Shown: in pieces, positions 1,735-35,308 of the stretch
How the letters are laid out: the number at the start of each line of letters is the position of its first letter
Position numbering within the stretch: position 1 is the first letter of the stretch
From: Minisyncoccia bacterium
GTDB lineage: Bacteria; Patescibacteriota; Minisyncoccia; Phycocordibacterales; UBA918
Assembly: GCA_046293175.1 (NCBI GenBank)
Contig: JBKBPM010000001.1
Coordinates: 511,847-575,846 of the forward strand
Direction: 5' to 3'
Length of the DNA stretch: 64,000 nt
Position numbers and translations under genes: made by a program
The notes under the pieces: generated by a model
The model's database searches: none
Seen by the model: only the letters and a program-made list of their open reading frames with translations
What the model was told of the DNA's origin: nothing

Positions 1735-1761
1735 GATAGTATAAAAAGCTCAAGGTGACCC

Positions 1762-2022: not shown

Positions 2023-2023
2023 C

Positions 2024-2060
2024 GCCACCGGAGGGGCCATCTCCCTGGTGGCCTTTTCAT
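2024..2060 (+). terminator. rho-independent terminator
   Basis: Stem gccaccggagggg/ctccctggtggc followed by cttttcatttt. Confidence 0.6.
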
Positions 2061-2061
2061 T

Positions 2062-3018: not shown

Positions 3019-3049
3019 GGTACCCAGTGTAGCATATCAAAAAATAGAC

Positions 3050-3120
3050 AAACCGCTGTCGGGAGCAACGCTCCCGACAGCGGTTTGATTGTCTAAGTAA
3101 GGGGTCTGACCCCTTACTTA
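3050..3120. terminator. two tandem perfect hairpins (bidirectional terminator between ftsQ-like and serS)
   Basis: aaaccgctgtcgggagc-aacg-ctcccgacagcggttt (17-bp stem) and taagtaagggg-tctga-ccccttactta (11-bp stem). Confidence 0.7.
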
Positions 3121-3123
3121 CAT

Positions 3124-4386
3124 TTATCCGATCTTGGCCTTACCGAAGTAAGGTATCAGTACATCCGGAATCTTAATCGATCCATCAGCCTGCTGGAGAT
3201 TCTCGACCAGCGAGACGAGGATGCGAGGTGCTGCCACTGCGGTGTTATTGAGTGAATGAGCGTAGCGTACGGTGCCGTCAGTGTCCTTGTAACGAATATT
3301 GAACCGGCGAGTCTGGAAGTCATGGAAGTATGAAGCGGAGTGAGTCTCACGATACTTCTCTTCTTTTGGTACCCAGGCTTCGATGTCATACTTCTTGACC
3401 TGACCCTGACCGATGTCGGCACCACAGTTGAGGACCACGTGGTATGGGATACCGAGCGACTGCATAAAGTCTTCGGTATTCTTCGTGATTTCTTCGTGCC
3501 ACTTTACACTCTCTTCATGTGAGGCTTCACAGAGAACGATCTGCTCTACTTTGTAAAACTCATGCACGCGGATAAGACCCTTCACGTCTTTACTGTGACT
3601 GCCGGCTTCACGACGGTAACAGGGTGAAAAGGCGAGGAACTTTACTGGGAGCTCACTCTTATCAAGGACCTCATCACTATAAAAGCCCATACCAGAAACT
3701 TCACTGGTACCAATGAGGTAGTCATCGTCTTGGGTACGGAAGACATCGTCAGCGTCGTTCGGGAGATGTCCGGTACCGTAGAGGTTTTGCTTACGGACGA
3801 TGGTTGGCGGCAACATCTGCACGAAGTCGCGTGCCCCAAAGAAATCGTTCGCGTAATTCCATATCGCCCACATTAACCGTGCGCCATCGCCGAGCATGTA
3901 GTAGCCGCGGAAGCCGTGCACTTTAGCACCACGTTCAAAATCAACCATCTTGTGGGCAAGCATGAGCTCGATATGGTCTTTGGCCGGAAACGGAAACTTG
4001 GTTTGCTCACCCCAAGCACGCACCTCGACATTGTCGGCATCACTCTCGCCGTCTGGAACCGTCATATCGGGAATATTCGGCACCTGGAGCATCAAGGCCT
4101 TCCATTCTTCAAGGACAGGCTTTAGCTGCTCTTCTTCGGCCTGTACGGCTGCCTTCACGCTCTGCATGGCGGTGATGAGTGGTTCACGGACGCTCGCATC
4201 ACTCGCTTTGGCAATTTCATCGGACACGCGATTTTGCTCGGCTTTTTTACTCTCGATACTCGACATGAGAGAGCGGCGAGTATCATCAAGCGTCACCAGG
4301 CGATCAAGATCCACCTTGATTTTCTTTTTGACTGCCGCTGCCTTCACAATATCGAGGTTTTCGCGAATAAATTTGATGTCGAGCAT
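3124..4386 (-). CDS. serS: seryl-tRNA synthetase
   Basis: 420 aa. N-terminal coiled-coil arm and class-II core with typical SerRS sequence (MLDIKFIREN..., motif 2/3 region GxxREAGSHSKDxxGLIRVHEF). Confidence 0.95.
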   Translation of the reverse strand: MLDIKFIRENLDIVKAAAVKKKIKVDLDRLVTLDDTRRSLMSSIESKKAEQNRVSDEIAKASDASVREPLITAMQSVKAAVQAEEEQLKPVLEEWKALMLQVPNIPDMTVPDGESDADNVEVRAWGEQTKFPFPAKDHIELMLAHKMVDFERGAKVHGFRGYYMLGDGARLMWAIWNYANDFFGARDFVQMLPPTIVRKQNLYGTGHLPNDADDVFRTQDDDYLIGTSEVSGMGFYSDEVLDKSELPVKFLAFSPCYRREAGSHSKDVKGLIRVHEFYKVEQIVLCEASHEESVKWHEEITKNTEDFMQSLGIPYHVVLNCGADIGQGQVKKYDIEAWVPKEEKYRETHSASYFHDFQTRRFNIRYKDTDGTVRYAHSLNNTAVAAPRILVSLVENLQQADGSIKIPDVLIPYFGKAKIG

Positions 4387-4479
4387 ACCTTAATTTCTAC
4401 AATAATAACGTTAAAAGTATACACGAGTTTGCAAATAGATAAAGAAAAGTGTACGCTCGTTCTCAGAAAGGAGTCGTCC

Positions 4480-4980
4480 ATGAACGTATTGCTTTACGAC
4501 TCATCGCGACTGCCTCCGGCAGTACAACCGTACGCTGACGGTATGAATACTCCGGCACCTACCTATCCAGATTACCCGAAGGAAGTCGTCCATCTCGCCA
4601 AGCAGCTACGACGAATTGCCTTGCGCAAGTTCACGAATGAACACCCCGGACTGCAATGGGGCAAGTTCCCTGACTACCACGACATCATGGGTCAGGAAAT
4701 CCAACTGTTCGGTAATCAAATCCTCGAAAAGGCTGTTAATGTCGAAGATGACAAGGCGTGGGGTCGACTCTGCGCTCGCTGTCCGCGAGTCGCCTACCTC
4801 ACCGAGAAGTTCGAGGGCGGGATCACGATCACGACGCGTCAACAAGCCAAAGCGCAACGTCAGCGCATTTGGAAGTACGCCATGGCGGATCCACGAACAC
4901 TTGGCGAGATTGAGGAGTACGTCATCGGACAAGTTCGCTTCGGTATTCCGACGCGGTCAAACCACCCACCTTGTGAGTAG
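4480..4980 (+). CDS. hypothetical protein
   Basis: 166 aa reading from the internal Met (MNVLLYDSS...). The longer ORF in the track overlaps the serS start, so I use the internal start. Confidence 0.4.
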   Translation: MNVLLYDSSRLPPAVQPYADGMNTPAPTYPDYPKEVVHLAKQLRRIALRKFTNEHPGLQWGKFPDYHDIMGQEIQLFGNQILEKAVNVEDDKAWGRLCARCPRVAYLTEKFEGGITITTRQQAKAQRQRIWKYAMADPRTLGEIEEYVIGQVRFGIPTRSNHPPCE

Positions 4981-5028
4981 CGGCGGACCAGTCTCTGGTC
5001 TGCCGCGTTTTTATGCTACAATTTTTTT

Positions 5029-5910
5029 ATGGGTACCTTGCCACTACGGCAGTTACTACGGGAAGAATTCCCGGCTCTTTTGGCGGAAATCCCCCAACCA
5101 CCGAAGTCTCTCTGGGCAGTCGGCAATCTCCCTCCCCCTGATCTCACTCTCCTTGCGGTTGTTGGCTCTCGAAGTCACACCACCTACGGAAAACAGGCGG
5201 TCGAACAACTGATTGGTGGTCTTGCGGGCTACCCCGTTGGTATCGTCTCCGGTCTCGCCTTAGGGATTGATGCACTCGCGCACGAGACGGCACTGCAGGC
5301 CGGTCTCTACACGCTTGCTGTCCCGGGCAGTGGCCTCGGTGAGCAAGTCATCTACCCGGCGACCAATCGTCGCTTGGCGCAGCGCATTGTTGAAGCTGGT
5401 GGTGGACTGTTATCCGAACTCTCACCCGATACGCGCGCGGCACTGTGGACCTTTCCGCAGCGGAACCGCATCATGGCCGGGATGTGTCGGGTGACACTCC
5501 TCATCGAAGCCGGTGAGAAGTCAGGTACCCTCATCACCGCACGCATGGCCGTGGACTACAATCGCGAACTTCTCGTAGTACCCGGGAGTATCTTCTCCCC
5601 GACCTCACGTGGCTGCCACCAATTCCTCAAGCTCGGGGCCACACCCGTAACCTCGGCCGCAGACATCCTCGAAGCACTCAACATTGCACAAATTGAGGCG
5701 GAATCGAAAATTGCGAACGAGAGCAATCTCTCACCCGAAGCCATACTCGTCCTCAGCCATCTCCCTGAACCAACCGACCGCGATACCCTCATCTCCCGTC
5801 TCGGTCTCCCGACTGCTGCCGCCAATATTGTCCTCATGCAGGTTGAGCTCGAGGGACACATCGTGACAGAAGGTGGTGTCTATACAGCAATCACGCATTT
5901 TGTACGATAG
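5029..5910 (+). CDS. dprA: DNA processing protein DprA (Smf)
   Basis: 293 aa. Rossmann-like DprA core: LLAVVGSRSHTTYGKQ..., GIDALAHETAL, GEKSGTLITARMA. Confidence 0.85.
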   Translation: MGTLPLRQLLREEFPALLAEIPQPPKSLWAVGNLPPPDLTLLAVVGSRSHTTYGKQAVEQLIGGLAGYPVGIVSGLALGIDALAHETALQAGLYTLAVPGSGLGEQVIYPATNRRLAQRIVEAGGGLLSELSPDTRAALWTFPQRNRIMAGMCRVTLLIEAGEKSGTLITARMAVDYNRELLVVPGSIFSPTSRGCHQFLKLGATPVTSAADILEALNIAQIEAESKIANESNLSPEAILVLSHLPEPTDRDTLISRLGLPTAAANIVLMQVELEGHIVTEGGVYTAITHFVR

Positions 5911-6123
5911 TAGTGAAAACTTACTATCCCCAAGTAGGTTTATCCGCATAGAGTGCTGTAAAAATGTTCGCAGACAAGGAACGCGAGTAAGGCAATGCGA
6001 GCCGTATTGATAATACGGTGAGTATTGAGGAGCGAGCAGTGACGCTGTATCCGGACATTTTGGCTGTGTTCTATTGTTTGACAGAAAGTAGTAAACCTAG
6101 TATTTGTTACGGCACACACATAT

Positions 6124-8472
6124 ATGAGTACCCTCGTCATCGTAGAGTCACCAGCCAAAGCCAAAACCATTGAAAAGTACCTTGGCAAAGGCTATACCGT
6201 CATGTCCTCCATTGGGCACGTGCGGGATTTGCCAAAGACAAACAAAGACGCCGTTGATATTGAGGCGGGTTTTGTGCCGCGCTACATCATTTCGCCCGGT
6301 AAAGAAAAGGTTATTGCCGACCTCCAAAAAGCGGCCAAAAGTGCCGATCTCGTTCTCCTCGCGTCCGACCCGGACCGCGAAGGAGAAGCTATTGCTTGGC
6401 ACATAGCCGAACTCATTAAAGGAGCAAACAAAAATCTTAAACGTGTCGTCTTTCACGAAATTACCGAAGACGCCGTGAAAGAAGCTATCACGCATCCTCG
6501 CGCCATTGATGAAAATCTCAAGGAAGCGCAAGAAGCCCGTCGTGTACTTGATCGTCTCGTTGGTTACGACCTCTCAGGGCTTATTTGGAAAAAAGTGCGT
6601 TACGGTCTTTCGGCTGGTCGTGTGCAATCACCGGCCTTGCGTATCATCATGGAGCGTGAGCGCGAAATCAGAGCCTTTGTACCTGAAGATTTCTTTGTAC
6701 TCACAACCACAGCCAAAGCGGGCAATACGGTGTTGCCACTCACCTGTACTATCGAGCCAAGCGAAAAAGCTGAAGCCGATCGTATCAAAAAAGTCGGTGA
6801 AAAAGGTACCTGGGTCGTAACCGACCTCAAAGAAACCGAGGCGCGTCGCGCACCTCGTGCACCGTTTACCACCTCAACCATCCAGCAAGCCGCTTCAACC
6901 CGACTTGGATTTTCGCCATCTCGCACTATGGGAGCGGCACAAAAACTCTACGAAGCGGGACACATTACTTACATGCGTACGGACAGTACAACCTTGAGTG
7001 TGGTAGCGCAAAAGCAAATCATCGCCCACATTAGTGCCGAGTACGGCAAAGACTACCTCGCACCACGTCAGTACAAGACCAAGAGTAAGTCAGCCCAAGA
7101 AGCCCACGAAGCAATTCGTCCGACAAATATTGCCGTGAAGAGCGCTGGTCTTACTCAAGACCAAAAGGCACTCTACGAACTCATCTGGCGGCGGACCGTG
7201 AGTTCACAAATGAGTGATGCGCTATTTGCCCGCACAAAGGTTGTCGCAAACATTGCCGGTAAAGAGACGATTCCAGACTTCGCTGTCACCGGTGCTCGCA
7301 TCACCTTTGATGGTTGGCTTAAGGTGGACACCGCCTCACGTGGTGAAGATGTCGAAGTCCCAAAACTAGGTATCGGCACCGAGCTAACGGTAAAAGAAAT
7401 CGCTGTTGAAGCCAAACAAACCCAACCGCCCAACCGCTACACGGAAGCTGGTCTCATTAAGGAACTTGAAAAGCGTGGTATTGGCCGGCCATCAACCTAT
7501 GCCAGTATCATGAACACTATCACCGAACGTGGGTATGTCACCAAAGAAGGTCGTACGCTTATTCCGACCGATACGGGAGATGTGGTTTCAACGTTTCTTG
7601 AGCAGTACTTTGGTGAGTATATTAGTGATACCTTCACGAGTGAGATGGAGGACGAACTTGATGAAATCGCCGAAGGCAAGCGCACTTACGAAAAGACGCT
7701 TAAGGATTTCTATACCCAGTTTAGCAAAGACGTGGCCGCTAAAGAAGATATCCCAAAGCTCACGAATCTCGGCGCTGGTCCAAAACAATTCCCTTGCCCT
7801 ACCTGCGGTGCTGGCATGGTAATAAAGCTCGGCCGTTCGGGAACCTTCCTCTCGTGCGAACGCTACCCAGACTGTGAAGGCGCTCGCCTCATAGATGGCA
7901 ATGAACTGAAGGCCGAAGCGCCAATTGGCAAGCACCCCGAGACTGGAGAGGATATCTATGTACTTAATGGTAAATACGGACCGTATGTCCAGCTTGGTGC
8001 CACCCCAGAAAAGGTAAAGGGCAAAAAAACGGTGACACCAAAGCGCGCGAGTCTCCCGGCTGGTGTGAAGATGGAAGATGTGACGCTCGAGATGGCAACC
8101 AAGTATCTCATCTTACCCCGCGAACTCGGCACCCATCCTGACACCGGGGAACCTGTGATAGCCAACACTGGACAGTATGGTCCGTACATTGCCCACGCAG
8201 GTGATTTCCGTTCCCTTAAGGGTAACGATGATCCGTACACCATTACCTTCAAGCGCGCACTTGAGATATTGAAAGAACCAAAGCCGGGCCGCAAGGGCGA
8301 AACCATCCTCAAACAAATTGGCATCCATCCTCGCACTCGCAAACTCATCAACCTCTACGAATCAAAATCAGGACGCTACTTTCGCAAGGGTTTCAAACGT
8401 ATCAGTATTCCAGACAACATGAAGACGGAGGATATCACCCTTGAGGTGGCTCTTGAGTTACTAAAGCAATAG
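6124..8472 (+). CDS. topA: DNA topoisomerase I
   Basis: 782 aa. Toprim domain (STLVIVESPAKAKTIEKYLG), active-site Tyr region, C-terminal Zn-ribbon (CPTCGAGM...CERYPDC). Confidence 0.95.
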   Translation: MSTLVIVESPAKAKTIEKYLGKGYTVMSSIGHVRDLPKTNKDAVDIEAGFVPRYIISPGKEKVIADLQKAAKSADLVLLASDPDREGEAIAWHIAELIKGANKNLKRVVFHEITEDAVKEAITHPRAIDENLKEAQEARRVLDRLVGYDLSGLIWKKVRYGLSAGRVQSPALRIIMEREREIRAFVPEDFFVLTTTAKAGNTVLPLTCTIEPSEKAEADRIKKVGEKGTWVVTDLKETEARRAPRAPFTTSTIQQAASTRLGFSPSRTMGAAQKLYEAGHITYMRTDSTTLSVVAQKQIIAHISAEYGKDYLAPRQYKTKSKSAQEAHEAIRPTNIAVKSAGLTQDQKALYELIWRRTVSSQMSDALFARTKVVANIAGKETIPDFAVTGARITFDGWLKVDTASRGEDVEVPKLGIGTELTVKEIAVEAKQTQPPNRYTEAGLIKELEKRGIGRPSTYASIMNTITERGYVTKEGRTLIPTDTGDVVSTFLEQYFGEYISDTFTSEMEDELDEIAEGKRTYEKTLKDFYTQFSKDVAAKEDIPKLTNLGAGPKQFPCPTCGAGMVIKLGRSGTFLSCERYPDCEGARLIDGNELKAEAPIGKHPETGEDIYVLNGKYGPYVQLGATPEKVKGKKTVTPKRASLPAGVKMEDVTLEMATKYLILPRELGTHPDTGEPVIANTGQYGPYIAHAGDFRSLKGNDDPYTITFKRALEILKEPKPGRKGETILKQIGIHPRTRKLINLYESKSGRYFRKGFKRISIPDNMKTEDITLEVALELLKQ

Positions 8473-8485
8473 TTCAAGGCAAGAC

Positions 8486-8532
8486 CTCGAACTAAATCAT
8501 CAAGCACGAGGTCTCGCCTCGTGCTTTGATAT
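8486..8532 (+). terminator. tandem hairpin terminators after topA
   Basis: gacctcg...cgaggtc and agcacgagg-tctcg-cctcgtgct. Confidence 0.55.
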
Positions 8533-8721
8533 TACCGATACATTTCAACATTCTTACAAAAATCGCTGTTCGAAATCTTGCTTTGAACTTGAATTTCTAA
8601 TATAAAAAGGTGCTATTTGAAGCACCTGAGATTATTGCGCTTATTGCGCTGTTATTTTGCAATAATTAAAGAGCTAGTTGAAGGTGAGCGAGTCCGCCCA
8701 CCTTCGCGACCTGGTCTAGGC

Positions 8722-8925
8722 TCAGCTCCTCAGCGGTTCTTGGTAGACAGTTCCGCAAGTTCCGATCCGTCCAACCACCTGGACACCGGCCGGCATCTTT
8801 GCAATGGGGTACCCGCTCGGCGAGATGGTGGCCGGGGAAATGCCGTGCCACTTTTCAGCATCCGAAAGCTTGGCCGTCGGAAGGGGTCCTTGGGTGACCA
8901 TCGTATACTTTTTGGTTTTCATCAT
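8722..8925 (-). CDS. hypothetical small protein
   Basis: 67 aa. AAGGA ribosome-binding site 5 nt upstream of ATGATG. A hairpin terminator (aggtgcttcaaatagcacctttttt on the minus strand, about 8604-8630) follows. Confidence 0.35.
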   Translation of the reverse strand: MMKTKKYTMVTQGPLPTAKLSDAEKWHGISPATISPSGYPIAKMPAGVQVVGRIGTCGTVYQEPLRS

Positions 8926-9183
8926 CTGTCCTTATTTCCGTATTTCACGCGGGTGATGTTTTTACTTGCAGACCAGCAAGCTTCGGTTTACACGTTGTCC
9001 CAAACGTGTAAGTAAAATTGAACCACAAAGACGAGCACAATGCAAGAAATCCATATCTACAGTCCCAAGGGTTTACACCGTAAGAAATCTCTCATTTGCT
9101 CAGTTGGTTACAACCAGCGAAGCGAAGTAATAAAATGCGCAGATGTTAGCGTATCACTGTAGGAGATTTCTAACGGGGTGAAC

Positions 9184-9212
9184 TTGCTATTCCTACCACT
9201 CTTCCCTACAAT
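9184..9212 (+). promoter_or_regulatory. sigma70-like promoter for relA (TTGCTA-17-TACAAT)
   Basis: -35 TTGCTA at 9184-9189, 17-nt spacer, -10 TACAAT at 9207-9212. The ATG at 9219 is 7 nt downstream, so the mRNA would be leaderless. Confidence 0.45.
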
Positions 9213-9218
9213 GACTTT

Positions 9219-10766
9219 ATGCGTACTGCAAGCGACATCATCGGCAAAATGCCGAAACTAACGAGAGCAAACGAAGAGCTCATCACCAAAGCGTATGAGT
9301 ATGCTGCCAAAATGCACGCCACCCAGACCCGCTACTCGGGCGAACCATACATGACCCACCTCGCTGAAGTGGCGTACAAAATCGCTGATATGGGACTTGG
9401 ACCCCGCACGGTCGCTGCTGCCCTCCTCCACGACAGTATCGAAGACACCGAAGCCACACCTGAAGAGATCAAAGAAATCTTTGGTGAAGAAATCCTCTAT
9501 CTCGTTGAAGGAGTAACAAAGCTCTCTTCTGTCCGTTACTATGGGAAAGATCGCCACAATGAGTCACTCCGGAAGCTTTTTGTGGCAACAAGTCAGGATA
9601 TTCGAGTACTCATCATTAAGCTCAATGACCGCCTCCACAATATGGAGACACTTGGCCATGTACCCGCCGAAAAGCAACTTCGTATCGCCCGCGAGACCCT
9701 TGAGATCTATGTACCAGTCGCTCACCGTCTGGGAATGGGTAAGCTTCGCAAGGAGCTCGAGGACCTCGCTTTCTTCTATGTGTACCCAGAGGACTATAAG
9801 CGCGTGAAGCAACTCCTTGAGCAACGCGCCGGTAAGAGTAGTGAAATTCTCGAACGCGAACGTAAGTCGCTCCAAAAGCGCCTCGCTGAGGCAAAACTGC
9901 TTGATTTTAATACGTCATACCGCGTGAAAGGACTTTATAGCCTGTATCACAAATTGATGCGCAAAGACTGGGACATTAATGCCGTGTATGACCTCATGGC
10001 GATGCGAGTTGTTGTCCCAACACTCGAGGACTGCTATCGTACACTTGGTATCATTCACGACCTCTGGCGACCACTCCCTGGTCGTATGAAGGACTATATC
10101 GCCTTTCCAAAGCCAAACGGTTACCAATCAATTCATACGACCGTCACCTCAAATCATGGCACGATTATGGAAATCCAGATTCGGACCCGCCAGATGCACC
10201 AAGAAGCCGAGTTCGGTGTGGCGTCGCACCTTATCTATAAAGAGCAGGTGGCACCGAAAGCGAGCAGTACCGCCACCGGTGGCCGCTTTGCAAACCTTAT
10301 CCCATCACTCTTCCGGCCATTTTCACGACGTTCCATCCCTGAAGAAGTAGTGGATGTCAAAATCCCAGACCACAAAGAAAAAATTCCGCAGTGGATTAGT
10401 CAGATTGGCGACATGTACACCAAAGACGAAATGAGTAGCCAGTTTATGACTGACATGCGTCAAGACTTCTTCATGAACCGCATCTTTGTCTTTACCCCAA
10501 ATGGAGACGTGGTTGACCTCCCCCTTGGTGCCACCCCAATTGATTTTGCCTACGCTATCCACTCCGAAATCGGTAACCATATTTCAGGCGCCCGAGTAAA
10601 CCGCAAGTTTGTACAACTCGAAACCGAACTCAAAAACGGTGACATTGTCGAAATTGAAACCAAAGAATCAGCCAAGCCATCAAAGAAGTGGCTTGATATT
10701 GCCAAGACCTCACTCGCCCGTCGTCATATCCGCAGCGAGCTTGGCCTACCGGCGGTTGGAAAATAA
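9219..10766 (+). CDS. RelA/SpoT-family (p)ppGpp synthetase/hydrolase (short form)
   Basis: 515 aa. HD hydrolase domain (HDSIEDT), synthetase domain and TGS-like region. No ACT domain. Confidence 0.85.
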   Translation: MRTASDIIGKMPKLTRANEELITKAYEYAAKMHATQTRYSGEPYMTHLAEVAYKIADMGLGPRTVAAALLHDSIEDTEATPEEIKEIFGEEILYLVEGVTKLSSVRYYGKDRHNESLRKLFVATSQDIRVLIIKLNDRLHNMETLGHVPAEKQLRIARETLEIYVPVAHRLGMGKLRKELEDLAFFYVYPEDYKRVKQLLEQRAGKSSEILERERKSLQKRLAEAKLLDFNTSYRVKGLYSLYHKLMRKDWDINAVYDLMAMRVVVPTLEDCYRTLGIIHDLWRPLPGRMKDYIAFPKPNGYQSIHTTVTSNHGTIMEIQIRTRQMHQEAEFGVASHLIYKEQVAPKASSTATGGRFANLIPSLFRPFSRRSIPEEVVDVKIPDHKEKIPQWISQIGDMYTKDEMSSQFMTDMRQDFFMNRIFVFTPNGDVVDLPLGATPIDFAYAIHSEIGNHISGARVNRKFVQLETELKNGDIVEIETKESAKPSKKWLDIAKTSLARRHIRSELGLPAVGK

Positions 10767-14079: not shown

Positions 14080-14112
14080 ATGCCACGCTCCCGTAGCGTG
14101 GCGTTTCTTTTT
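14080..14112 (+). terminator. rho-independent terminator immediately upstream of miaA
   Basis: gccacgct-cccgt-agcgtggc followed by gtttctttttt. Confidence 0.6.
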
Positions 14113-15056
14113 TGCTCATTTTTGCTACACTGCCGCTACCAGTCATGACCAAACAACCACTCATTATCATCGTGGGACCGACTGCCTCCGGCAAAACTTC
14201 CCTATCTATCAAATTAGCGGAGGCTTTTGCCGGTGAGGTGATTTCGGCTGATAGTCGACAGGTCTACCGCGGACTTGATCTCGGCAGTGGCAAGGTGACT
14301 ACGGATGAGATGCGAGGTATACCCCACCACCTCCTTGATATCGCTGACCCCATGACCGTCTACAATGCCAGTGATTTTGTCCGTGATGCCAAGTCCGCTA
14401 TCGCCGACATTGCTGCTCGACAACACCTCCCCATCATAGCCGGTGGCACCTTCTTTTACATAGACAGTCTCCTTGGCCGTCTTTCACTCCCATCGGTACC
14501 ACCAAATGATACCCTCCGCACCGAACTTGAATATCTCAGTGTAGATGAACTTTATGCACGACTCACTGCCCTTGACCCAGTAAGATCAGAAACAGTTGAT
14601 AAAAATAATCCCCGCCGCCTCGTGCGCGCTATTGAGATAGCCACTGCCCTGGGACATGTGCCACCAACTACAATCAGTGACTCCCCTTACCGCCCACTCA
14701 CCCTTGGTATCACGATTGATAAAGAAACGCTCCACCACAACATTCATGTCCGCCTGCATGAACGATTAGATGCCGGTATGATAGCTGAGGTAGAGGGTCT
14801 TGTCGCTACCGGCATATCACACGAACGTCTCGAATCGCTTGGTCTCGAGTACCGTTATGTCTCACGTTACCTGCGGGGACTCATCGACTACGACACCATG
14901 GTCCTAGAACTTGAGACCAAAATCAGACAATTCGCCAAGCGCCAATACACCTGGCTGAAGCGCGATACCTCTATCATCTGGATTGATCCCAAGGACACTG
15001 AAGGCATTAATCCCCTCATGACAGACTTTTTAGCCGCTCCTATTCCAGCCAACTAA
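14112..15056 (+). CDS. miaA: tRNA dimethylallyltransferase MiaA
   Basis: 314 aa (the true start is possibly the MTKQ at 14145). P-loop GPTASGKT, ISADSRQVYRGLDLGSGK. Confidence 0.9.
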   Translation: MLIFATLPLPVMTKQPLIIIVGPTASGKTSLSIKLAEAFAGEVISADSRQVYRGLDLGSGKVTTDEMRGIPHHLLDIADPMTVYNASDFVRDAKSAIADIAARQHLPIIAGGTFFYIDSLLGRLSLPSVPPNDTLRTELEYLSVDELYARLTALDPVRSETVDKNNPRRLVRAIEIATALGHVPPTTISDSPYRPLTLGITIDKETLHHNIHVRLHERLDAGMIAEVEGLVATGISHERLESLGLEYRYVSRYLRGLIDYDTMVLELETKIRQFAKRQYTWLKRDTSIIWIDPKDTEGINPLMTDFLAAPIPAN

Positions 15057-15097: not shown

Positions 15098-15168
15098 GGG
15101 TCTATAGTTTAGGGGTAGAACATCAGTCTCCAAAACTGATGGCCGAGGTTCGATTCCTCGTGGACCCG
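15098..15168 (+). tRNA. tRNA-Trp(CCA)
   Basis: Acceptor GGGTCTA/TGGACCC, anticodon stem TCAGT/ACTGA with loop CTCCAAA, T-arm CGAGG-TTCGATT-CCTCG, discriminator G. Confidence 0.85.
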
Positions 15169-15208
15169 CATACAGAAAAACCGCCATAAGGCGGTTTTTC
15201 TGTATGCG
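15168..15208. terminator. long perfect hairpin terminator after tRNA-Trp
   Basis: gcatacagaaaaaccgcc-ataa-ggcggtttttctgtatgc. Confidence 0.75.
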
Positions 15209-15222
15209 TTTTTGAAGCTAAC

Positions 15223-16212
15223 TTAACACGAGACATTTACCTCTCCTCTTCGACCACCCCAATCACAATGCACGTGCCCTGACCCCGAATACATCATTAT
15301 AAAACTAGCTCCAACCGCCCGACATACTCTGACAATATCACATCGACCAGCTCGTCCACCAGCAGAAGTAAGATCAAGCGCTACGCCAGAAGAATGACGA
15401 GAACCGTTACCCCCACGGCTGCACGGCCGAGCAACTGTTCCTTGCTGCTGGCATCGAGGGCACTGATCCCAAAGTTCCGTTTGTCTGGCATCAGATCGGT
15501 ATGAACTGGTAACGCTAAGACTAGGCAGAGATCTTTGCATGGCTGTAAAGCGACCGGCGACGTAAGCTGTCGCCCGGTGATTGCCTTGTCCAGGTATACT
15601 TACCAAAGAACTCTCATTAAAACTACAATTACTTCCGACGGCAGGATTTGGTATAGGCATCCCCGCCGGACCAGGAATGGTGGCTGGAATAATTGTTACA
15701 TCCTCACCTCCTGGAATAGATTCATTTGGTTCAAACGTCACTGGGGTAAACGAGCCCGGGGTTGGTGTCGGCTGAGAATAACACTCCACCGTACTCCAAT
15801 AAAGCCAACCAGTCACCTGCCCATTTGGTATTTGCCCCTCTGAGCCTTCGCGTCCAACCAAACCGCGCATAATGGTGTCAACAATCAGCCACGCTGCCAG
15901 CACAATAATAAGCCCAATAAATGCATTTACAAATCGGTTCTTCGCTTCATCGAGTGCATGATGATTGCCGCCGGAGGTGACGAGGCCAAAACCAGCGTAG
16001 GCGAGGATAACCGCGAAGATAATAAAAAGAAATCCAATGAGCCAGGTGATGAGGCCGTTGGCAAGATGCACTAAGTTACAGGCTGAACAGTCTGGACCAG
16101 AACAGCCGGCGTATTCCGCCAGTGAGGTTTGAGCAATGGCCACGTCCGGCACCACCATTGGTAGAATGAGAGTAAAACTGAAGATAGCTAAAAATAGTCC
16201 GAACCGCATCAT
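15223..16212 (-). CDS. TrbC/VirB2-like two-TM pilin-type domain fused to M15-family (VanY-like) peptidoglycan peptidase
   Basis: 329 aa. Signal peptide, Cys-rich segment, then TM1-GG(N)xxxxExAK-TM2 (AYAGFGLVTSGGNHHALDEAKNR...IGLIIVLAAWLIV). Pro/Thr linker QPTPTPGSFTPVTFEPNESIPG. The C-terminus has SSYRSDARQTELW ... HSSGVALDL ... HVHCDW, matching the LAS/M15 zinc peptidase pattern (SxxR, HxxGxAxD, H). Confidence 0.6.
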   Translation of the reverse strand: MMRFGLFLAIFSFTLILPMVVPDVAIAQTSLAEYAGCSGPDCSACNLVHLANGLITWLIGFLFIIFAVILAYAGFGLVTSGGNHHALDEAKNRFVNAFIGLIIVLAAWLIVDTIMRGLVGREGSEGQIPNGQVTGWLYWSTVECYSQPTPTPGSFTPVTFEPNESIPGGEDVTIIPATIPGPAGMPIPNPAVGSNCSFNESSLVSIPGQGNHRATAYVAGRFTAMQRSLPSLSVTSSYRSDARQTELWDQCPRCQQQGTVARPCSRGGNGSRHSSGVALDLTSAGGRAGRCDIVRVCRAVGASFIMMYSGSGHVHCDWGGRRGEVNVSC

Positions 16213-16217
16213 GATGC

Positions 16218-16721
16218 TTACAATTTTACACTACCGGGACAGAAGCTAAATCGGTAATCAGCACCAGAAGCAGCTTCATCAACATACCCAGGCACACTCA
16301 CGGTGTAATCGAGTCCACACATCTGGGCCTCACTCAGGTTAAGAGTCTTTTTTAGATAGGCTTCGACCGATAGCCGACTTGCTGCGAACGGCTTTTTGAG
16401 AAGTATGATATTAAAATATTTTGTCTCAGCATCAAAAGTAACAATGTACTCGGCTGTTTGGACATCTTCAAAAGTGTTACCTAGAAAATAGTCATTTGTA
16501 TTATATGCAGCTGGAGTGACTTCAGGTAAGGCTAGAAAGTTTTCAACATCAATACTTTTACCGTTTGCTAATGGAAGGGTCACACCGCTATCACTTGGCT
16601 TCGCTACCGAATTATCTGGCCTCGTGATAGAAGCATCCTTTATTAAACTATTATAAAGGATATATACACTGATTGGGATGAAAACAACAAATATAATTGT
16701 AATGACTAAAGAAAATTTCAT
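16218..16721 (-). CDS. hypothetical membrane-anchored/secreted protein (AT-rich gene)
   Basis: 167 aa with an N-terminal TM. Codon usage is more AT-rich than its neighbours. Confidence 0.45.
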   Translation of the reverse strand: MKFSLVITIIFVVFIPISVYILYNSLIKDASITRPDNSVAKPSDSGVTLPLANGKSIDVENFLALPEVTPAAYNTNDYFLGNTFEDVQTAEYIVTFDAETKYFNIILLKKPFAASRLSVEAYLKKTLNLSEAQMCGLDYTVSVPGYVDEAASGADYRFSFCPGSVKL

Positions 16722-16730
16722 ACTAATGTA

Positions 16731-17663
16731 TTACATCCTACCACCATAGGCACGGACACAAGACGCTGCCCGATTATTGCAACCAGGACAAGTCCAGTCG
16801 CGATAACCACGTGTACGAACTAACCGCACCATCATTTGTATATTACACTGCGCACGCATACAATTTGATCGCCAATCATTACAAGCTCCGGGCGGCGGAT
16901 TGCTTCTCCACGTGGTTCGTGTTATCTGAAACGTACCACAGGCAGTTGAATTAGAACCTGGGTGTGTTTCATTATACGGTGGAGTATTTGGATTACCAGA
17001 ACTCTCAGTCATCGCAATGCAAGACATTACATTTGCCTGTACTGGTGTTAAGCCCGCTGCTTGTAGTGCCGCTACACTACAAGCACTATTTGAAGGACTA
17101 CACTGCACACCGCCACCTGGTCCACCGCCAGAGCCACCGCCAGATAAACTGCCGCCAGTAGCACCGGTAATATAGGTGTAGCTACCTGGTATAACCACCA
17201 CACGATTACCAGGAATCTCAGTATTTGGATCAAAAGTTTGTGGAGTAAAAGTCCCTGGGTCCGGGTTTGGTTGTGCCACACAACTCAGTTCATTCCACAT
17301 CCCAAGTCGTGTCTCACCATCAAGGAGTAACATGCGCATACCGGTGTCAATGAGAAGCCAGCCGGCGAGGACAATCACATAGCCAATAATCATGTTACTA
17401 ATCATTGATTTGGCATCTTCTTTGGCATGGCGATTGCCACCAGAGGTCACAAGCTTAAAGCCAGCGTAGACGATAATAATGGCAGCGACCGTACCAAGAA
17501 TGAGCACGAGCCAAGAAATCACCCGATTGACGAGTTCTACCACATAACACATCTGACAAGCCGGTTCACCCTCACCCCCACAAGGAACAAGACCCGCTGC
17601 ATAGGAAAGCAGTGGCACTGCTACGAGCACCAAAAACAATACACTGCCCCAAAATCGCTTCAT
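16731..17663 (-). CDS. TrbC/VirB2-like two-TM pilin-type domain fused to SLT-type lytic transglycosylase (VirB1-like)
   Basis: 310 aa. The N-terminal 150 aa are about 45% identical to the N-domain of 15223..16212 (VYAGFKLVTSGGNRHAKEDAKSM...IGYVIVLAGWLLIDTGMRML; linker QPNPDPGTFTPQTFDPNTEIPG). Gly-rich spacer. The C-terminus CIAMTESSGNPNTPP...STACGTFQI matches the SLT catalytic Glu-Ser ... GLMQ-type motif. Confidence 0.6.
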   Translation of the reverse strand: MKRFWGSVLFLVLVAVPLLSYAAGLVPCGGEGEPACQMCYVVELVNRVISWLVLILGTVAAIIIVYAGFKLVTSGGNRHAKEDAKSMISNMIIGYVIVLAGWLLIDTGMRMLLLDGETRLGMWNELSCVAQPNPDPGTFTPQTFDPNTEIPGNRVVVIPGSYTYITGATGGSLSGGGSGGGPGGGVQCSPSNSACSVAALQAAGLTPVQANVMSCIAMTESSGNPNTPPYNETHPGSNSTACGTFQITRTTWRSNPPPGACNDWRSNCMRAQCNIQMMVRLVRTRGYRDWTCPGCNNRAASCVRAYGGRM

Positions 17664-17767: not shown

Positions 17768-17850
17768 GCGTCGGTACTCAAGTGGTCAACGAGGGGGGAC
17801 TGTAAATCCCCTGGCATCTGCCTACGAAGGTTCGAATCCCTCCCGGCGCA
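17768..17850 (+). tRNA. tRNA-Tyr(GTA)
   Basis: Acceptor GCGTCGG/CCGGCGC (one G-U pair), anticodon stem GGGGA/TCCCC with loop CTGTAAA, long variable arm GGCATCTGCC, T-loop TTCGAAT, discriminator A. Confidence 0.75.
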
Positions 17851-17895
17851 CACCAAAAAAACAGCTCAGGCAAATGCCTGGGCGATTTTTATTGT

Positions 17896-18029
17896 GTGCC
17901 GGGAAGTAAAGTGTGTGGGACACACTTTACGCGGGATTCGAAGACCTTGCCTGCTATTTTGTGAGGTACGAAACAAAATAGTGACAAGGTGTACTGAAGC
18001 TGTAAGCTTCGAATCCCTCCCGGCGCACA
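17896..18029 (+). repeat. tRNA-associated structured repeat, copy A, with a perfect 24-nt duplicate of the tRNA-Tyr 3' end
   Basis: Hairpin gtaaagtgtgt-ggga-cacactttac, then the core gattcgaagaccttgcctgctattttgtgaggtacgaaacaaaatagtgacaaggtgtactgaagctgtaagc, then gcttcgaatccctcccggcgcaca (18006-18029). The last segment matches tRNA-Tyr 17829-17852 at 22/24 positions. Confidence 0.65.
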
Positions 18030-18094
18030 ACAACTGATTAGAATGCAATGTATTTGGATCATTACCTATTCCATCGACACTGTTCGATACTCGA

Positions 18095-18787
18095 TTAAAC
18101 TATAATCGCAACGTTTAGAATCTTTGGTTCTGGAGCATATACGCCATATTGAAAAGTGGAGCTACTCACCCATTTGGTATCGAATACCGGACCACCGTAC
18201 CCACAGCCGCCTGACCAGAAACTTTCATGATCTGCTATAGAAACTTTTTTGATGGTTGACATTGTTTCTAAGTCAATAATTGAAATTGTCGTTGTGGGAT
18301 TGTAGTAATCAATTATATTTGTGAGATATCTACCCTCTGGAGACAAATCTTCACCATCAGCATAACTAATAGCAAAATCTGTCTTGAAAAAACTTTTTCC
18401 TTTTATATCAAATCCATACACTAAACTTTCTCTGGAACTATATGTTAATGTTTTCACAAAAATTATTCCCGTGAGTTGTGACCTATAGATAGGTTCAATC
18501 ACCGGACCATATGTTGGTTGTACAGAAAATTGATTTTCAAATATAGTTTGAAGCTCTGTATTTGTTGGTAAAGACGTATTTGTTGCCATTGATGACACTT
18601 GACTTGATGTTGCAATAACTGTCTCCACATTTTGAATCATCACTTTATTTTGAACGAATTCATAACCCACATACCCACCCAAAAGTGGTAGGAGTACGAA
18701 CAATGTGAGTACTAAATATTTTGATAGTGGAGTGACTTTTTTCAACGGCGCTATAAGACTCTCCTCTTCATGCTGTTGCGGTTCCAT
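18095..18787 (-). CDS. hypothetical membrane-anchored protein (AT-rich gene)
   Basis: 230 aa with an N-terminal TM (LVLTLFVLLPLLGGYVGY). AT-rich codon usage. Confidence 0.45.
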   Translation of the reverse strand: MEPQQHEEESLIAPLKKVTPLSKYLVLTLFVLLPLLGGYVGYEFVQNKVMIQNVETVIATSSQVSSMATNTSLPTNTELQTIFENQFSVQPTYGPVIEPIYRSQLTGIIFVKTLTYSSRESLVYGFDIKGKSFFKTDFAISYADGEDLSPEGRYLTNIIDYYNPTTTISIIDLETMSTIKKVSIADHESFWSGGCGYGGPVFDTKWVSSSTFQYGVYAPEPKILNVAIIV

Positions 18788-18879: not shown

Positions 18880-19416
18880 GTGCGCCTGATCCTTAAAGTA
18901 CTACTCCTGTCTACCACCCTATCAAACGCTTCCCTGGCTGAGGGAACGTATACTCCCAAGCCGCTGCCCGCCCATCTGCAAGATTGTGTCGACGCAGCTA
19001 TCCGTGATTTGGCTCTCTCTGATGGGAAACGCGACACGATCGAGAAACTCTTCAACAAACACGTCGACCGAAACGGGCTCGGGTATCGCGTATGGAAACG
19101 TGCTTGGGCTAATGGCACGAAAAAGTGGCGAGCCAAAGCCATCGAACTCTACATCGACACGCTCATGCTCGTGGCTAAAGATGCCAAGGCGGGCGCTACG
19201 GTCATTCGGGTGGACAGTCGCTTGGCTGACCACGCAGAACGGGGTGCCAACAACGGCAACGGACTCTGGCAAATCGCCTTCAGTGCCCACCTGTCTGACG
19301 GACGCATCGTAAGCGCCGGCGCCCTGGTCACTGATCAATGCAAAGCAGTCGAGTTCATTCATGGTACCTGGGTTGGTAGACAGATCCCTGCCGCCCTGGT
19401 TGATGCGCAGCTCTAA
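18880..19416 (+). CDS. hypothetical secreted protein
   Basis: 178 aa with a signal peptide and a GTG start. A terminator hairpin ggccgcccggg...cccgggcggtc plus T-run lies at about 19425-19462. Confidence 0.45.
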   Translation: MRLILKVLLLSTTLSNASLAEGTYTPKPLPAHLQDCVDAAIRDLALSDGKRDTIEKLFNKHVDRNGLGYRVWKRAWANGTKKWRAKAIELYIDTLMLVAKDAKAGATVIRVDSRLADHAERGANNGNGLWQIAFSAHLSDGRIVSAGALVTDQCKAVEFIHGTWVGRQIPAALVDAQL

Positions 19417-30336: not shown

Positions 30337-30477
30337 ACTAAGTGGAATGGGGGCAATGTGCCTACCGGCGTCCCCTTCTTGGTCTGAATGTCCAAGAGCG
30401 GCATCCGGTAGGTGCACCCGCTCACCTTGGTCACGGCAACAGCGCCGGTTGACAACAATATAGCAAAGGAACACAAC

Positions 30478-33480: not shown

Positions 33481-33873
33481 TTAGCAGGGACCAGAACCGG
33501 TACAAGGAGGCGGTACGTAGAGGGAAGCATCAATACAATTAGCGTTAAGTGGGTCACTCGCACAATCTAACGTATCTTGTAGACCAAAAGTCCCAGCGGC
33601 AATACCAAGGATACTGTAAGCCACGAGCATAATAAACATCCCCACTATCCCCCAGAGAATATGCATCTGGCCAGTCTCACGGGCACTACTTTCGGCACTG
33701 TGGCTGATGTACTCGTAGCAGCCGTAGAGGAAGATGAGGAGCGCAAGCCCCATCAAAAGCATTATCAGCGGGTATAAAATTACTTCATTGAGTCGCTCAA
33801 CAAAGTTATAAGCTTCACGCATACCGGGTGTTGGTCCTTGAGCGTACGCAATTGATACAAAAAATCCAAACAT
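33481..33873 (-). CDS. TrbC/VirB2-like small two-TM pilin-type protein (paralogue 5)
   Basis: 130 aa from MFGFFVSIAYAQG. Signal peptide, TM1, charged loop (HSAESSARETGQ), TM2. Confidence 0.5.
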   Translation of the reverse strand: MFGFFVSIAYAQGPTPGMREAYNFVERLNEVILYPLIMLLMGLALLIFLYGCYEYISHSAESSARETGQMHILWGIVGMFIMLVAYSILGIAAGTFGLQDTLDCASDPLNANCIDASLYVPPPCTGSGPC

Positions 33874-33934
33874 AAACAACAACAGTATAACACAAAAGCC
33901 CCGCGAGGGGCTTTTGTGTAGACTGTGTTTGGTA

Positions 33935-34312
33935 CTAGTTACCAAGAGTTGGCACCTCTGGAGTAGTGTCCAGTGAATCTTCAAGACCAAGACCATTTGA
34001 GAGAATGTTCACAATACCCCAAAAGGCGAGAATAACTACATATCCAGCAATGGCGTACATGATGAGACTGCGGCCATTTTCCTTGGCTTCTTCGTTTGCA
34101 CCACCACGAATGAAGTAGTTAAACATTCCCCACACAAACATGAGGAAACCGATGGCCAGAATAAATGGAATAACATAGCCACTAATGAAAGCAAGGATGG
34201 CTGTCATTGCGCCACCAATATCTCCACCATCGCCGCCATTGAGTACAGCTGCAGAGGCTGGAAAAGCCACCGCGAGGCTAGCCAATACAACAAGAGAAAG
34301 GAATGATTTCAT
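33935..34312 (-). CDS. TrbC/VirB2-like small two-TM pilin-type protein (paralogue 4)
   Basis: 125 aa. Signal peptide AFPASA, then FIRGGANEEAKENGRSLIMYAIAGYVVILAFWGIV matching the GGNxxAKEDAK-TM2 core of the 15223 and 16731 N-domains. Confidence 0.6.
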   Translation of the reverse strand: MKSFLSLVVLASLAVAFPASAAVLNGGDGGDIGGAMTAILAFISGYVIPFILAIGFLMFVWGMFNYFIRGGANEEAKENGRSLIMYAIAGYVVILAFWGIVNILSNGLGLEDSLDTTPEVPTLGN

Positions 34313-34477
34313 ATGATTCTAAATACGATAAAAGAAGCGGATATGTATGCTTCATATATTATTATACACGAAAAGTAAGATTTTTAAAGGGTTTCAATCC
34401 CGGGTGTGCAAAAGTTACATGAACAACAGTAATTAATCACAAGTCTTCAAAAAAAGAACAGTAGCGAGGCGCGAAAG

Positions 34478-34585
34478 CGAAGAAATGTGAGATGTGAAGA
34501 AACACGGGGCGTTTCTGCAAGACTCATTGAGCATTTTGCGAATGAAATGATGCAAAAGGCCAATGAGTGGACAGTTTCTGTAAGA
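34478..34585 (+). repeat. structured repeat, copy C (subfamily 2, orphan; between pilin-like genes)
   Basis: gtgagatgtgaagaaacacggggcgtttctgcaagactcattgagcattttgcgaatgaaatgatgcaaaaggccaatgagtggacagtttctgtaag. About 80% identical to copy D at 41943-42030. Hairpins gaaac/gtttc, actcattg/caatgagt and ttttgc/gcaaaa. Confidence 0.6.
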
Positions 34586-34651
34586 AACTTTTGTATGATG
34601 AACGTTTCTGATGCGAACCGCAACCAAGCTAATGACTTTTTATGGAGACTT

Positions 34652-34900
34652 TTAATTGCCGGTAAGAAGAGCGAGTATCCCCCAAATCGATACCATGATA
34701 ATCATCACCACCACGGCCGTGATAGCTATTGTCGTACCCTCCTCACGCTTACTTGGATCATCAGCATGAATGACCCAGGCGTCTATCATCTTCCACAGTA
34801 CAACGAGGAAGGCAATGGCAAAGATGAAGGTGATAGCCAGATTAACAAACTCCAAAAAGAAGCTTACTAGTCCAGCGAAGTCTGTCGGGGTGGAGTCCAT
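34652..34900 (-). CDS. small two-TM membrane protein, probable TrbC/VirB2-like paralogue 6 (no signal peptide)
   Basis: 82 aa. TM1, DDPSKREEG loop, TM2. Confidence 0.4.
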   Translation of the reverse strand: MDSTPTDFAGLVSFFLEFVNLAITFIFAIAFLVVLWKMIDAWVIHADDPSKREEGTTIAITAVVVMIIMVSIWGILALLTGN

Positions 34901-34921
34901 AATAATTACACAGGCTCCACC

Positions 34922-35308
34922 TTAGGCGGCGAAACTGTCAACGGTATTCCTGATAATTTCTGCAATAGCAACCGCTGCAAGAATGAGTACTCCGCCGATG
35001 ATTGCGTAGGTGAAGGTGGTGGTGGCTTCTTCGATCTGTCTCGGATTACCCTGCGCGGTTACGTACTTAAAGCCAGCCAAGATGATAAAGAGAACAATAA
35101 TCGGAATCATGAGCACCATAAAGATGTTGAGGATGGCGATAAGCAGTTCCTCGATAGAGTTTACGCGGAGTGGGTTATCGAGAGTGACTGGTTCAATCGA
35201 AGGAGTACCACCTGTAGTTTGCTGAGCCTGCACATAGGTAGTTAAAAAACCAAAAAAGAGAGTGGGAAGACACATAACCAAGAAACCAATTTTTTGAAGT
35301 ATACTCAT
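34922..35308 (-). CDS. TrbC/VirB2-like small two-TM pilin-type protein (paralogue 3)
   Basis: 128 aa. Signal peptide, then ILAGFKYVTAQGNPRQIEEATTTFTYAIIGGVLILAAVAI, which aligns with VYAGFKLVTSGGNRHAKEDAKSM... of the 16731 gene. Confidence 0.6.
   Translation of the reverse strand: MSILQKIGFLVMCLPTLFFGFLTTYVQAQQTTGGTPSIEPVTLDNPLRVNSIEELLIAILNIFMVLMIPIIVLFIILAGFKYVTAQGNPRQIEEATTTFTYAIIGGVLILAAVAIAEIIRNTVDSFAA

Follow-up and report, generated by a model that had tools for sequence, protein, structure and literature searches.

Two pilin-family fusions to peptidoglycan-cleaving domains, with a putative partner protein, in a tRNA-flanked operon of a Paceibacteria-type Patescibacterium

Proteins of the Pfam family PF18895 (T4SS_pilin) are regarded as VirB2-like pilins of the type IV secretion systems (T4SSs) of Patescibacteria (PMC12102498, PMC10633639, PMC12857230), and these pilins, their arrays, and their essentiality have already been published (PMC10633639, PMC12102498). 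The described pilins stand alone, are about 100 to 185 amino acids (aa) long, and are usually encoded near virB4 (Wang et al. 2023, PMC10633639; Quinonero-Coronel et al. 2025, PMC12102498). We analyzed a stretch of 64,000 nucleotides (the window) of a Minisyncoccia bacterium (GenBank assembly GCA_046293175.1, contig JBKBPM010000001.1, positions 511,847 to 575,846, forward strand) and characterized a three-gene cassette at 15,223 to 17,663, in which two genes, A and C, fuse a domain of this same Pfam family to two different peptidoglycan-cleaving domains. A and C share the signal peptide and the two-helix hairpin with the described pilins, and a small-pilin array is also present in the window, but each is longer by about 200 residues that include a catalytic domain, and their operon lies away from any T4SS ATPase. 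In the main texts and available supplements of the two earlier studies, such proteins are listed solely as "VirB2," without partner domains (PMC10633639, PMC12102498). We infer with moderate confidence, from sequence comparisons and structure models, that the cassette encodes polymorphic wall-breaching enzymes on a VirB2-like scaffold, coupled to a T4SS and accompanied by cognate partner proteins.

PrgK (pCF10), TraG (pIP501), and CwlT (ICEBs1) are membrane-anchored, bifunctional enzymes combining a lysozyme or SLT domain with a CHAP or NlpC/P60 peptidase. These Gram-positive VirB1-like hydrolases, which are cited in the 2025 study (PMC12102498), resemble A and C in acting in a monoderm envelope, in having an N-terminal membrane anchor, and in bringing together a glycan cleaver and a peptidase. 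However, both of their activities reside on one polypeptide with a simple transmembrane (TM) anchor, encoded inside a transfer operon, whereas the cassette has two proteins with pilin-family hairpin anchors, a LAS/M15 peptidase, and a putative cognate protein between them. In Southlakia epibionticum, the essential T4SS cluster encodes SEML1_0006 (two lysozyme-like domains and a cysteine peptidase) and SEML1_0007 (M15B-like) beside VirB4 and six PF18895 pilins (PMC10633639 Table S2; PMC12102498), so that another Patescibacterium combines both enzyme classes with PF18895 pilins. The Southlakia hydrolases are essential for epibiotic growth, are >600 and >1,100 aa long, are not fused to pilins, and lie adjacent to virB4, whereas A and C are small pilin fusions at a separate locus. 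By this analogy, parts that are neighbors in the Southlakia T4SS cluster appear fused in A and C. Effector-immunity systems offer another comparison: in VgrG3/TsiV3 of V. cholerae and X-Tfe/X-Tfi of Xanthomonas, a wall-degrading C-terminal domain sits on a structural or trafficking part, and an envelope immunity protein is encoded adjacently. The cassette resembles them in its N-terminal carrier, wall-degrading C-terminal domain, polymorphic catalytic module, and small envelope protein encoded next to it as a putative cognate. It differs in its monoderm cell and in its scaffold, which is a T4SS pilin hairpin where the other systems use a VgrG spike or an XVIPCD signal, and only one of its two enzymes in the window has a putative partner.

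The cassette consists of three minus-strand open reading frames (ORFs), exactly where a first-pass annotation, made by a model from the letters of the window, had placed them:

17663..16731, minus strand: gene A (ORF), 310 aa, fusion of a pilin domain to a lysozyme-like domain
16721..16218, minus strand: gene B (ORF), 167 aa
16212..15223, minus strand: gene C (ORF), 329 aa, fusion of a pilin domain to a VanY/M15B metallopeptidase

The genes are co-directional, with spacers of 9 nt between A and B and 5 nt between B and C, and they form a single chromosomal operon of a Paceibacteria-type Patescibacterium (candidate phyla radiation). A, B, and C themselves are absent from the databases; the closest matches are 89 to 93% identical, and the homologues come from Patescibacteria metagenome-assembled genomes labelled Parcubacteria, Paceibacteria, Kaiserbacteria, or Minisyncoccota. 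PADLOC returned zero matches for A, B, C, and the neighbors of unknown function. The parts of the two fusions, as delimited with an AlphaFold2 (AF2) model of A and its predicted local distance difference test (pLDDT) scores, family matches, and motifs, are as follows:

17598..17663, minus strand: signal peptide of A, residues 1-22 (...LLSYA, cleavage before AG; AF2 helix 2-22; -3/-1 small-residue rule)
17328..17552, minus strand: VirB2-like hairpin of A, residues 38-112 (AF2 helices 38-73 and 78-112; PF18895 over residues 42-105)
17109..17327, minus strand: disordered Pro/Gly-rich tether of A, residues 113-185 (pLDDT below 50 over 117-124 and 151-183)
16734..17108, minus strand: Cys-rich lysozyme-like catalytic domain of A, residues 186-310 (E220-S221; G243-T-F-Q246-I)
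15871..16068, minus strand: VirB2-like hairpin of C, Pfam residues 49-114 (TM1, loop SGGNHHALDEAK, TM2; Pfam and BLASTP)
15226..15597, minus strand: LAS/M15B peptidase domain of C, residues ~206-329 (catalytic motifs; PDB profile matches)

The N termini of A and C are clearly paralogous over the first ~160 residues, at 41% identity across 167 aa by BLASTP (E = 4e-37), compared with the approximately 45% over 150 residues first estimated. Every feature that the first-pass annotation had described as shared was found in both proteins, namely, a signal peptide (ending in SYA before A in A and in AIA before Q in C), a Cys cluster preceding TM1, a TM1-SGGNxxAxxxAK-TM2 hairpin with the loop SGGNRHAKEDAK in A and SGGNHHALDEAK in C, and the linker motif QPxPxPGxFTPxTFxPNxxIPG, which in A lies in the tether together with the conserved W123/C128. 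Both proteins gave full-length Pfam matches to PF18895 (model of 71 positions, gathering cut-off of 26.6 bits), A with 38.4 bits (E = 1.3e-9, model positions 6-68) and C with 35.2 bits (E = 1.3e-8, model positions 7-71). The layout of the family, i.e., a signal peptide and two hydrophobic helices with a short polar loop, was seen for A in the AF2 model and for C by alignment. Besides, the N-domain shares 32% identity (E = 2e-8) with a standalone pilin of 128 aa encoded at 34922-35308 of the same window. Searches against NCBIfam gave sub-threshold matches only (Mbov_0395 pilin-like and D-Ala-D-Ala dipeptidase). The N-domain is a member of PF18895.

The C-terminal domain of A matched PF18896 (SLT_3) with 27.0 bits, exactly at the gathering cut-off of 27. 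In the AF2 model (mean pLDDT 77), it is compact with pLDDT above 90, and the catalytic Glu is placed at the end of the first core helix, as in the lysozyme-like fold. E220-S221 and G243-x2-Q246 were invariant among 65 homologues, which also keep ~10 cysteines, and the homologues of A fall into 230 clusters, the majority with PF18895 plus PF18896. The classical SLT family PF01464 (GH23) scored 13.2 bits (E = 0.068), below its gathering cut-off of 21.3; a PDB profile search weakly favored C-type lysozyme (E = 0.006), and the residue equivalent to lysozyme Asp53 is Ala. The earlier description of this domain as SLT/VirB1-like thus stood for its E-S / G-T-F-Q-I signature and its SLT_3 match but not for membership in classical SLT, and the domain is better termed a member of the lysozyme-like superfamily (SLT_3), which could be a lytic transglycosylase or a hydrolase.

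For C, the LAS/M15, VanY-like assignment was borne out at each level. PF02557 (VanY) matched with 28.8 bits over residues 221-284 (gathering cut-off of 25), and the LAS motifs are complete: Y238-R239-S-x3-Q244, S271-x-H273-x2-G-x-A-x-D280, and H313-x-H315. Homologues of C form 254 clusters. Among 55 aligned sequences of the family, all matched both PF18895 and PF02557 (best VanY E = 3e-16), and R239, Q244, S271, H273, G276, A278, and D280 were invariant; H313-V-H315-C-D-W is kept in the 34 closest homologues. The family profile matched solved LAS structures, i.e., the Ply500 L-Ala-D-Glu peptidase (2vo9, E = 1.5e-6), YodJ (4ox3), a VanY-type enzyme (5hnm), and LdcB (4ox5). A match to OSTC in a single-sequence PDB search was rejected as spurious TM similarity, the profile search having given LAS peptidases. 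With PF02557 above its cut-off and SLT_3 at its cut-off, the mismatch to the M15 and SLT folds that would have refuted the first-pass annotation did not occur.

Together, these features suggest that Sec signal peptides direct the export of A and C, which the VirB2-like (PF18895) helical hairpin then retains in the membrane. The predicted topology, with a cleaved signal peptide, TM1 running in, and TM2 running out, would put the Cys-rich catalytic domains of both proteins outside the cell, where a disordered Pro/Gly tether of ~70 to 85 residues appears to bear each disulfide-rich domain. The two activities would be complementary, A cutting glycan strands and C cutting stem peptides.

We searched for the cassette in relatives by running our own hidden Markov models (HMMs) of B, of the pilin N-domain, and of the lysozyme-like and M15 domains on six-frame translations of all fetched loci. 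The order pilin fusion, B, pilin fusion was present in loci L001 to L012 and L018 to L019. Furthermore, for four distant members of the B family, chosen blind, an SLT_3-type gene lay directly upstream of B on every short contig recovered. With these included (L001 to L012 and L018 to L025), the cassette recurred in all 20 related loci. In every longer locus checked for synteny (L001, L002, L004, L006 to L010, and L012), the cassette was situated beside miaA in the same backbone. Its boundaries in the window are the following:

17768..17851, plus strand: tRNA-Tyr(GTA), ARAGORN and Rfam; upstream boundary, divergent from the operon
15167..15208, no strand: 19-bp palindromic hairpin (terminator scan) between the stop codon of C and tRNA-Trp
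15098..15169, plus strand: tRNA-Trp(CCA), ARAGORN and Rfam; downstream boundary
14112..15056, plus strand: miaA (Pfam IPPT), next after tRNA-Trp

tRNA-Trp and miaA converge on the C end of the operon, and the hairpin between them and C is likely a bidirectional terminator closing the operon. tRNA-Tyr and an adjacent repeat had at first been described as following the genes; in fact, they lie upstream of the operon, 5' of A. Of the loci scanned for tRNAs, seven extend past both cassette ends (L002, L004, L006, L007, L009, L010, and L012, all with tRNA-Tyr), and in each of them the cassette has a tRNA gene on either side; tRNA-Trp was conserved in 8/8 related loci scanned. The cassette is widespread and rapidly diversifying in Paceibacteria-type genomes.

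Since the slot is bounded by tRNA genes, the cassette could belong to an integrated conjugative element as its VirB1/VirB2 module. A direct repeat of the tRNA-Tyr 3' end (17827-17856) lies at 18004-18033, 177 bp downstream of the tRNA (30 nt, 28/30 matches), where neither ARAGORN nor Rfam called a second tRNA; over 15.0 to 18.2 kb, Rfam found the two tRNAs only, with no RNA family match in the repeat region. This repeat at the edge of the slot may be an att-like scar of an old integration or excision. A serine recombinase just upstream in L012 and the weak match to the Mbov_0395 pilin-like family of such elements point the same way. Against this, relaxase, coupling protein, and VirB4 were not found, most Patescibacterial T4SS loci lack relaxases (PMC12102498), the GC content at the locus is unremarkable, and divergent genomes keep both the slot and the gene order between housekeeping flanks. 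With no transfer genes and with synteny to housekeeping genes, we set this explanation aside as very improbable.

Within this fixed slot, the enzymes vary. The first fusion has a lysozyme-like domain in all loci, recognized as SLT_3 or, in divergent loci, by the motif C..ES.G...G[LP][WM]QIN (read by eye). The second has a peptidoglycan peptidase in all loci, the family of which is variable:

VanY: the window, L003, L012
M15_4: L001, L005, L008, L010
M15_3: L006
NlpC/P60 (unrelated fold): L004, L007, L009
LAS-like, by motif: L002, L018

Sliding identity between C of the window and its counterpart in L001 was 87 to 97% over residues 1-150 and then 20 to 40%, with the breakpoint in the linker; the hairpin itself is 93 to 97% identical although the C-terminal domain has been replaced. 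In L002, ClpB is 97.5% identical to that of the window, whereas B is 27% identical and both catalytic domains are replaced; in L004, where the peptidase is NlpC/P60, ClpB is 97% identical and B is 63 to 66% identical, according to the alignment used. Mean identity was 51 to 56% for the hairpin versus 26 to 38% for the enzymes, and at least five different hydrolase families have been recruited onto the same hairpin. The junction motif FTPxTFxPN(xxIPG) occurs in 15/120 sequences versus 0.3% by chance; as a general demarcation motif, however, FTPxTFxPN was rejected, being confined to the subclade of the window (24/240 matches). The catalytic modules thus appear to be exchanged, cartridge-like, at a fixed tRNA-flanked slot. 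This strongly supports the suggestion in the first-pass annotation of modular evolution by domain swapping, for which the linker breakpoint, the switches of peptidase family, and the presence of a further gene in relatives (D, below) all argue.

The same data bear on whether A and C are housekeeping autolysins, which would remodel the cell's own wall for growth and division with the hairpin as a convenient anchor, B as a regulator, and no tie to a T4SS. A housekeeping neighborhood with strict synteny suggests vertical inheritance, no T4SS ATPase was found nearby, and, to our knowledge, few autolysins are recognizable in Patescibacteria, all of which suits such a role. Swaps of catalytic family and partner are, however, unexpected between relatives with ClpB 97% identical, and the hairpin is better conserved than the enzymes. 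The recruitment of so many hydrolase families onto one hairpin suggests that the hairpin has a specific role, and the fast modular evolution weighs against plain housekeeping autolysins. We consider this explanation unlikely.

Gene B encodes a predicted membrane-anchored extracellular beta/alpha protein with an invariant Cys135/Cys161 pair (AF2 pLDDT 76, predicted template modeling score 0.66). Its position between the fusions is as first described, but the N-terminal helix of the model (residues 2-28) makes it look membrane-anchored rather than freely secreted. A profile search over 1.84 billion representatives, clustered at 50% identity, gave 1,420 clusters at E ≤ 1e-3 and 523 at E ≤ 1e-10, nearly all of 160 to 200 aa; a giant LapA-repeat adhesin (P0383) in this search was discarded as a repeat artifact. 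In L018, two tandem B-family genes lie between the pilin fusions (5980-7101; B HMM E = 8e-36 and 2e-8).

We compared the divergence of the cassette parts across 12 related loci. Pairwise divergence of B tracked the C-terminal domain of A (Spearman rho 0.76; Mantel p ~5e-4, from permutations that correct for phylogenetic structure only in part) but not the N-domain of A (0.11), the N-domain of C (-0.07), or the C-terminal domain of C (-0.19), while the N-domains of A and C tracked one another (0.58). B adjoins both the C-terminal domain of A and the N-domain of C, so simple linkage fails to explain the asymmetry. Because B always lies directly downstream of the lysozyme-like gene and co-varies with its catalytic domain, B is probably a cognate partner of the lysozyme-like domain.

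In some relatives, a fourth cassette gene, D, encodes a protein of 200 to 270 aa with an N-terminal TM helix and a conserved Cys pair and with no Pfam match. D lies after every fusion of the M15_4 or NlpC/P60 type, and the D proteins form a homologous family of their own, separate from B:

M15_4 loci: L001 2339-2944; L005 2900-3505; L008 8225-8818; L010 12543-13139
NlpC/P60 loci: L004 8972-9691; L007 10915-11727; L009 10873-11637

This arrangement, a conserved N-terminal part followed at a sharp junction by a variable catalytic C-terminal domain, is a trait of polymorphic effector/immunity systems. A and C might thus be interbacterial weapons, i.e., polymorphic toxins aimed at competitors and not at a host, with B (and D in relatives) as immunity proteins that protect siblings. 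Besides the shared trait, the co-variation of small membrane-anchored downstream genes with the catalytic domain and the hypervariability relative to the backbone agree with this explanation. However, the domains seen are solely peptidoglycan-cleaving, always one glycosidase plus one peptidase, whereas typical toxin loci are broader (nucleases and deaminases), and this restriction weighs against a generic polymorphic-toxin locus. Moreover, there are no orphan C-terminal/immunity arrays, the VanY type has no partner, and the proteins are membrane-tethered and not obviously released. We regard a weapon directed at competitors as quite unlikely.

We therefore return to wall-breaching enzymes on a T4SS pilin-type scaffold. 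In the mechanism that we propose, the pilin domain would couple A and C to a T4SS-pilin system encoded elsewhere, and the pair would open peptidoglycan locally at cell-cell contact. For an epibiont, the target would be the wall of the host and possibly also that of the cell itself. B would bind the lysozyme domain of A, as an inhibitor or immunity factor or as a chaperone, and the enzymatic modules would be traded between lineages at the tRNA-flanked slot like effector-immunity cartridges. The link to a T4SS is drawn from the Pfam family to which the hairpin belongs, from the presence of a pilin array in the window, and from the comparison of fusion here with neighborhood in S. epibionticum.

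Several observations weigh against this interpretation. First, the classical TrbC/VirB2 family PF04956 stayed below its gathering cut-off of 27.9 bits, with 15.6 bits for C (E = 0.018) and 10.3 bits for A (E = 0.87), although 9/55 homologues in the C family reached E below 0.01. When 121 N-domains were aligned with five annotated VirB2/TrbC proteins by hhalign, the result was E = 3.5e-4 with a probability of only 37%. (An Agrobacterium VirB2 sequence that served as bait only was 100% identical to an annotated virB2 product.) With these values, the hairpin could be a mere anchor. The weak alignment was nevertheless collinear over 63 columns, from the pre-TM1 segment through TM1, loop, and TM2 to the C terminus of VirB2, and together with the PF18895 matches and the similarity to the standalone pilin it argues against an N-domain unrelated to VirB2/TrbC. 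The initial call of a TrbC/VirB2-like domain is thus upheld through PF18895 but not through PF04956, and homology to classical VirB2 is plausible.

Second, the surroundings of the cassette do not include a secretion apparatus. The VirB4 and VirD4 genes that the first-pass annotation proposed to look for, as well as VirB3, VirB6, and PrgI, were not recognized in the scanned ORFs of the 64-kb window, nor was a T4SS ATPase or VirB3/VirB6 found within ±10 kb of the cassette in L010 and L012. The neighbors are housekeeping genes (miaA, parB, relA, topA, and clpB); the window as a whole carries topA, a RelA/SpoT-like gene, parB, miaA, clpB, and the genes for IF-2, gyrA, ftsA, and ftsZ. Third, the partner genes fit imperfectly. 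B had no family assignment in Pfam or NCBIfam, and its structural match to an immunity protein was marginal. No D follows the VanY-type fusions, including that of the window, and an enzyme without a partner gene is a misfit with a strict effector-immunity model. In addition, M15_4 and NlpC/P60 are unrelated enzymes, yet the D proteins that accompany them are distant relatives of each other, which is unexpected for fold-specific immunity proteins.

The pilin array of the window comprises four standalone, two-TM pilin-like genes (33481..35308, minus strand) found by Pfam T4SS_pilin, our own N-domain HMM, and ORF analysis:

34922-35308, minus strand: pilin-like, 128 aa (T4SS_pilin E = 5e-11; TrbC E = 1e-4)
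34652-34900, minus strand: pilin-like, 82 aa (T4SS_pilin E = 6e-4)
33935-34312, minus strand: pilin-like, 125 aa (T4SS_pilin E = 5e-7)
33481-33996, minus strand: pilin-like, ORF of up to 171 aa (T4SS_pilin E = 2e-4)

This is probably a "VirB2 array" as reported for Patescibacteria, and its genes are probable major and variant pilins of the same system as A and C. The array lies downstream of a gene for a secreted SBP_bac_8-like protein (35331-36632) and adjoins two genes for large polytopic membrane proteins, at 30412-31989 (plus strand, 525 aa) and 31992-33356 (plus strand, 454 aa). These two might be divergent VirB6-like T4SS components; neither they nor a membrane protein at 61243-62847 had family matches in Pfam or PADLOC.

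A bolder alternative is that A and C are "evolved VirB2" subunits that would be extracted by the T4SS into a pilus of the standalone pilins (33.5 to 35.3 kb), so that an enzyme-armed pilus would drill through host peptidoglycan while B silences the lysozyme domain on the producer. A and C would then be minor or tip subunits of a conjugative-type pilus in a monoderm, presenting their glycan-cleaving and peptide-cleaving domains on flexible tethers, and enzymatic tips would be exchanged to match host wall chemotypes. We offer this as a tentative extension and give it a low probability.

Some further features were noted around the cassette and elsewhere in the window. In L012, the region directly upstream of tRNA-Tyr and the cassette (767-9886) encodes an OLD-family ATPase/TOPRIM nuclease and a UvrD helicase (a Gabija-like pair), as well as a large serine recombinase; unrelated small ORFs occupy the same position in the window, so that this side of the slot resembles a variable island. 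Between the slot and a membrane spermidine-synthase-like gene, the window has two membrane or secreted ORFs, at 18095-18787 (minus strand) and 18880-19416 (plus strand). The first resembles, in patches only, ORFs that precede the cassette in L007 and L008. The second is 54% identical to a 182-aa ORF of L004, and its place in L002 and L010 is taken by a weak MlaC-like ORF (183 and 173 aa, respectively). At 54306-54394 (plus strand), ARAGORN called an 89-nt tRNA-Ile with the anticodon TAT; bacterial tRNAs do not usually have this anticodon or this length, and the prediction may point to an atypical way of decoding AUA or may be wrong.

We found no description in the searchable literature, which is not proof of absence, of the pilin-hydrolase fusions, the conserved cassette, B, D, the modular swapping, or pilin-borne polymorphic toxins. 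Some database entries are auto-labelled by their Pfam names, e.g., [quoted passage not shown] and the consecutive accessions PF18895 and PF18896 suggest that the fusion had been noticed by the Pfam curators.

Patescibacteria account for a substantial part of bacterial diversity, and most of them grow attached to other microbes, which raises the question of how the host envelope is breached or tapped. A T4SS with its pilin array is essential in the one genetically tractable species (PMC10633639), and in the 2025 census most VirB2-containing genomes were without VirB1 (PMC12102498). Our results bear on this scarcity of VirB1, as in Paceibacteria-type genomes wall-cutting activities can hide inside proteins scored "VirB2." The cassette supplies candidates for host-interface machinery, and B represents a large uncharacterized family that may consist of lysozyme-domain inhibitors. 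If the pilin domains polymerize, A and C would be the first case of a T4SS pilin as a carrier of effector domains.

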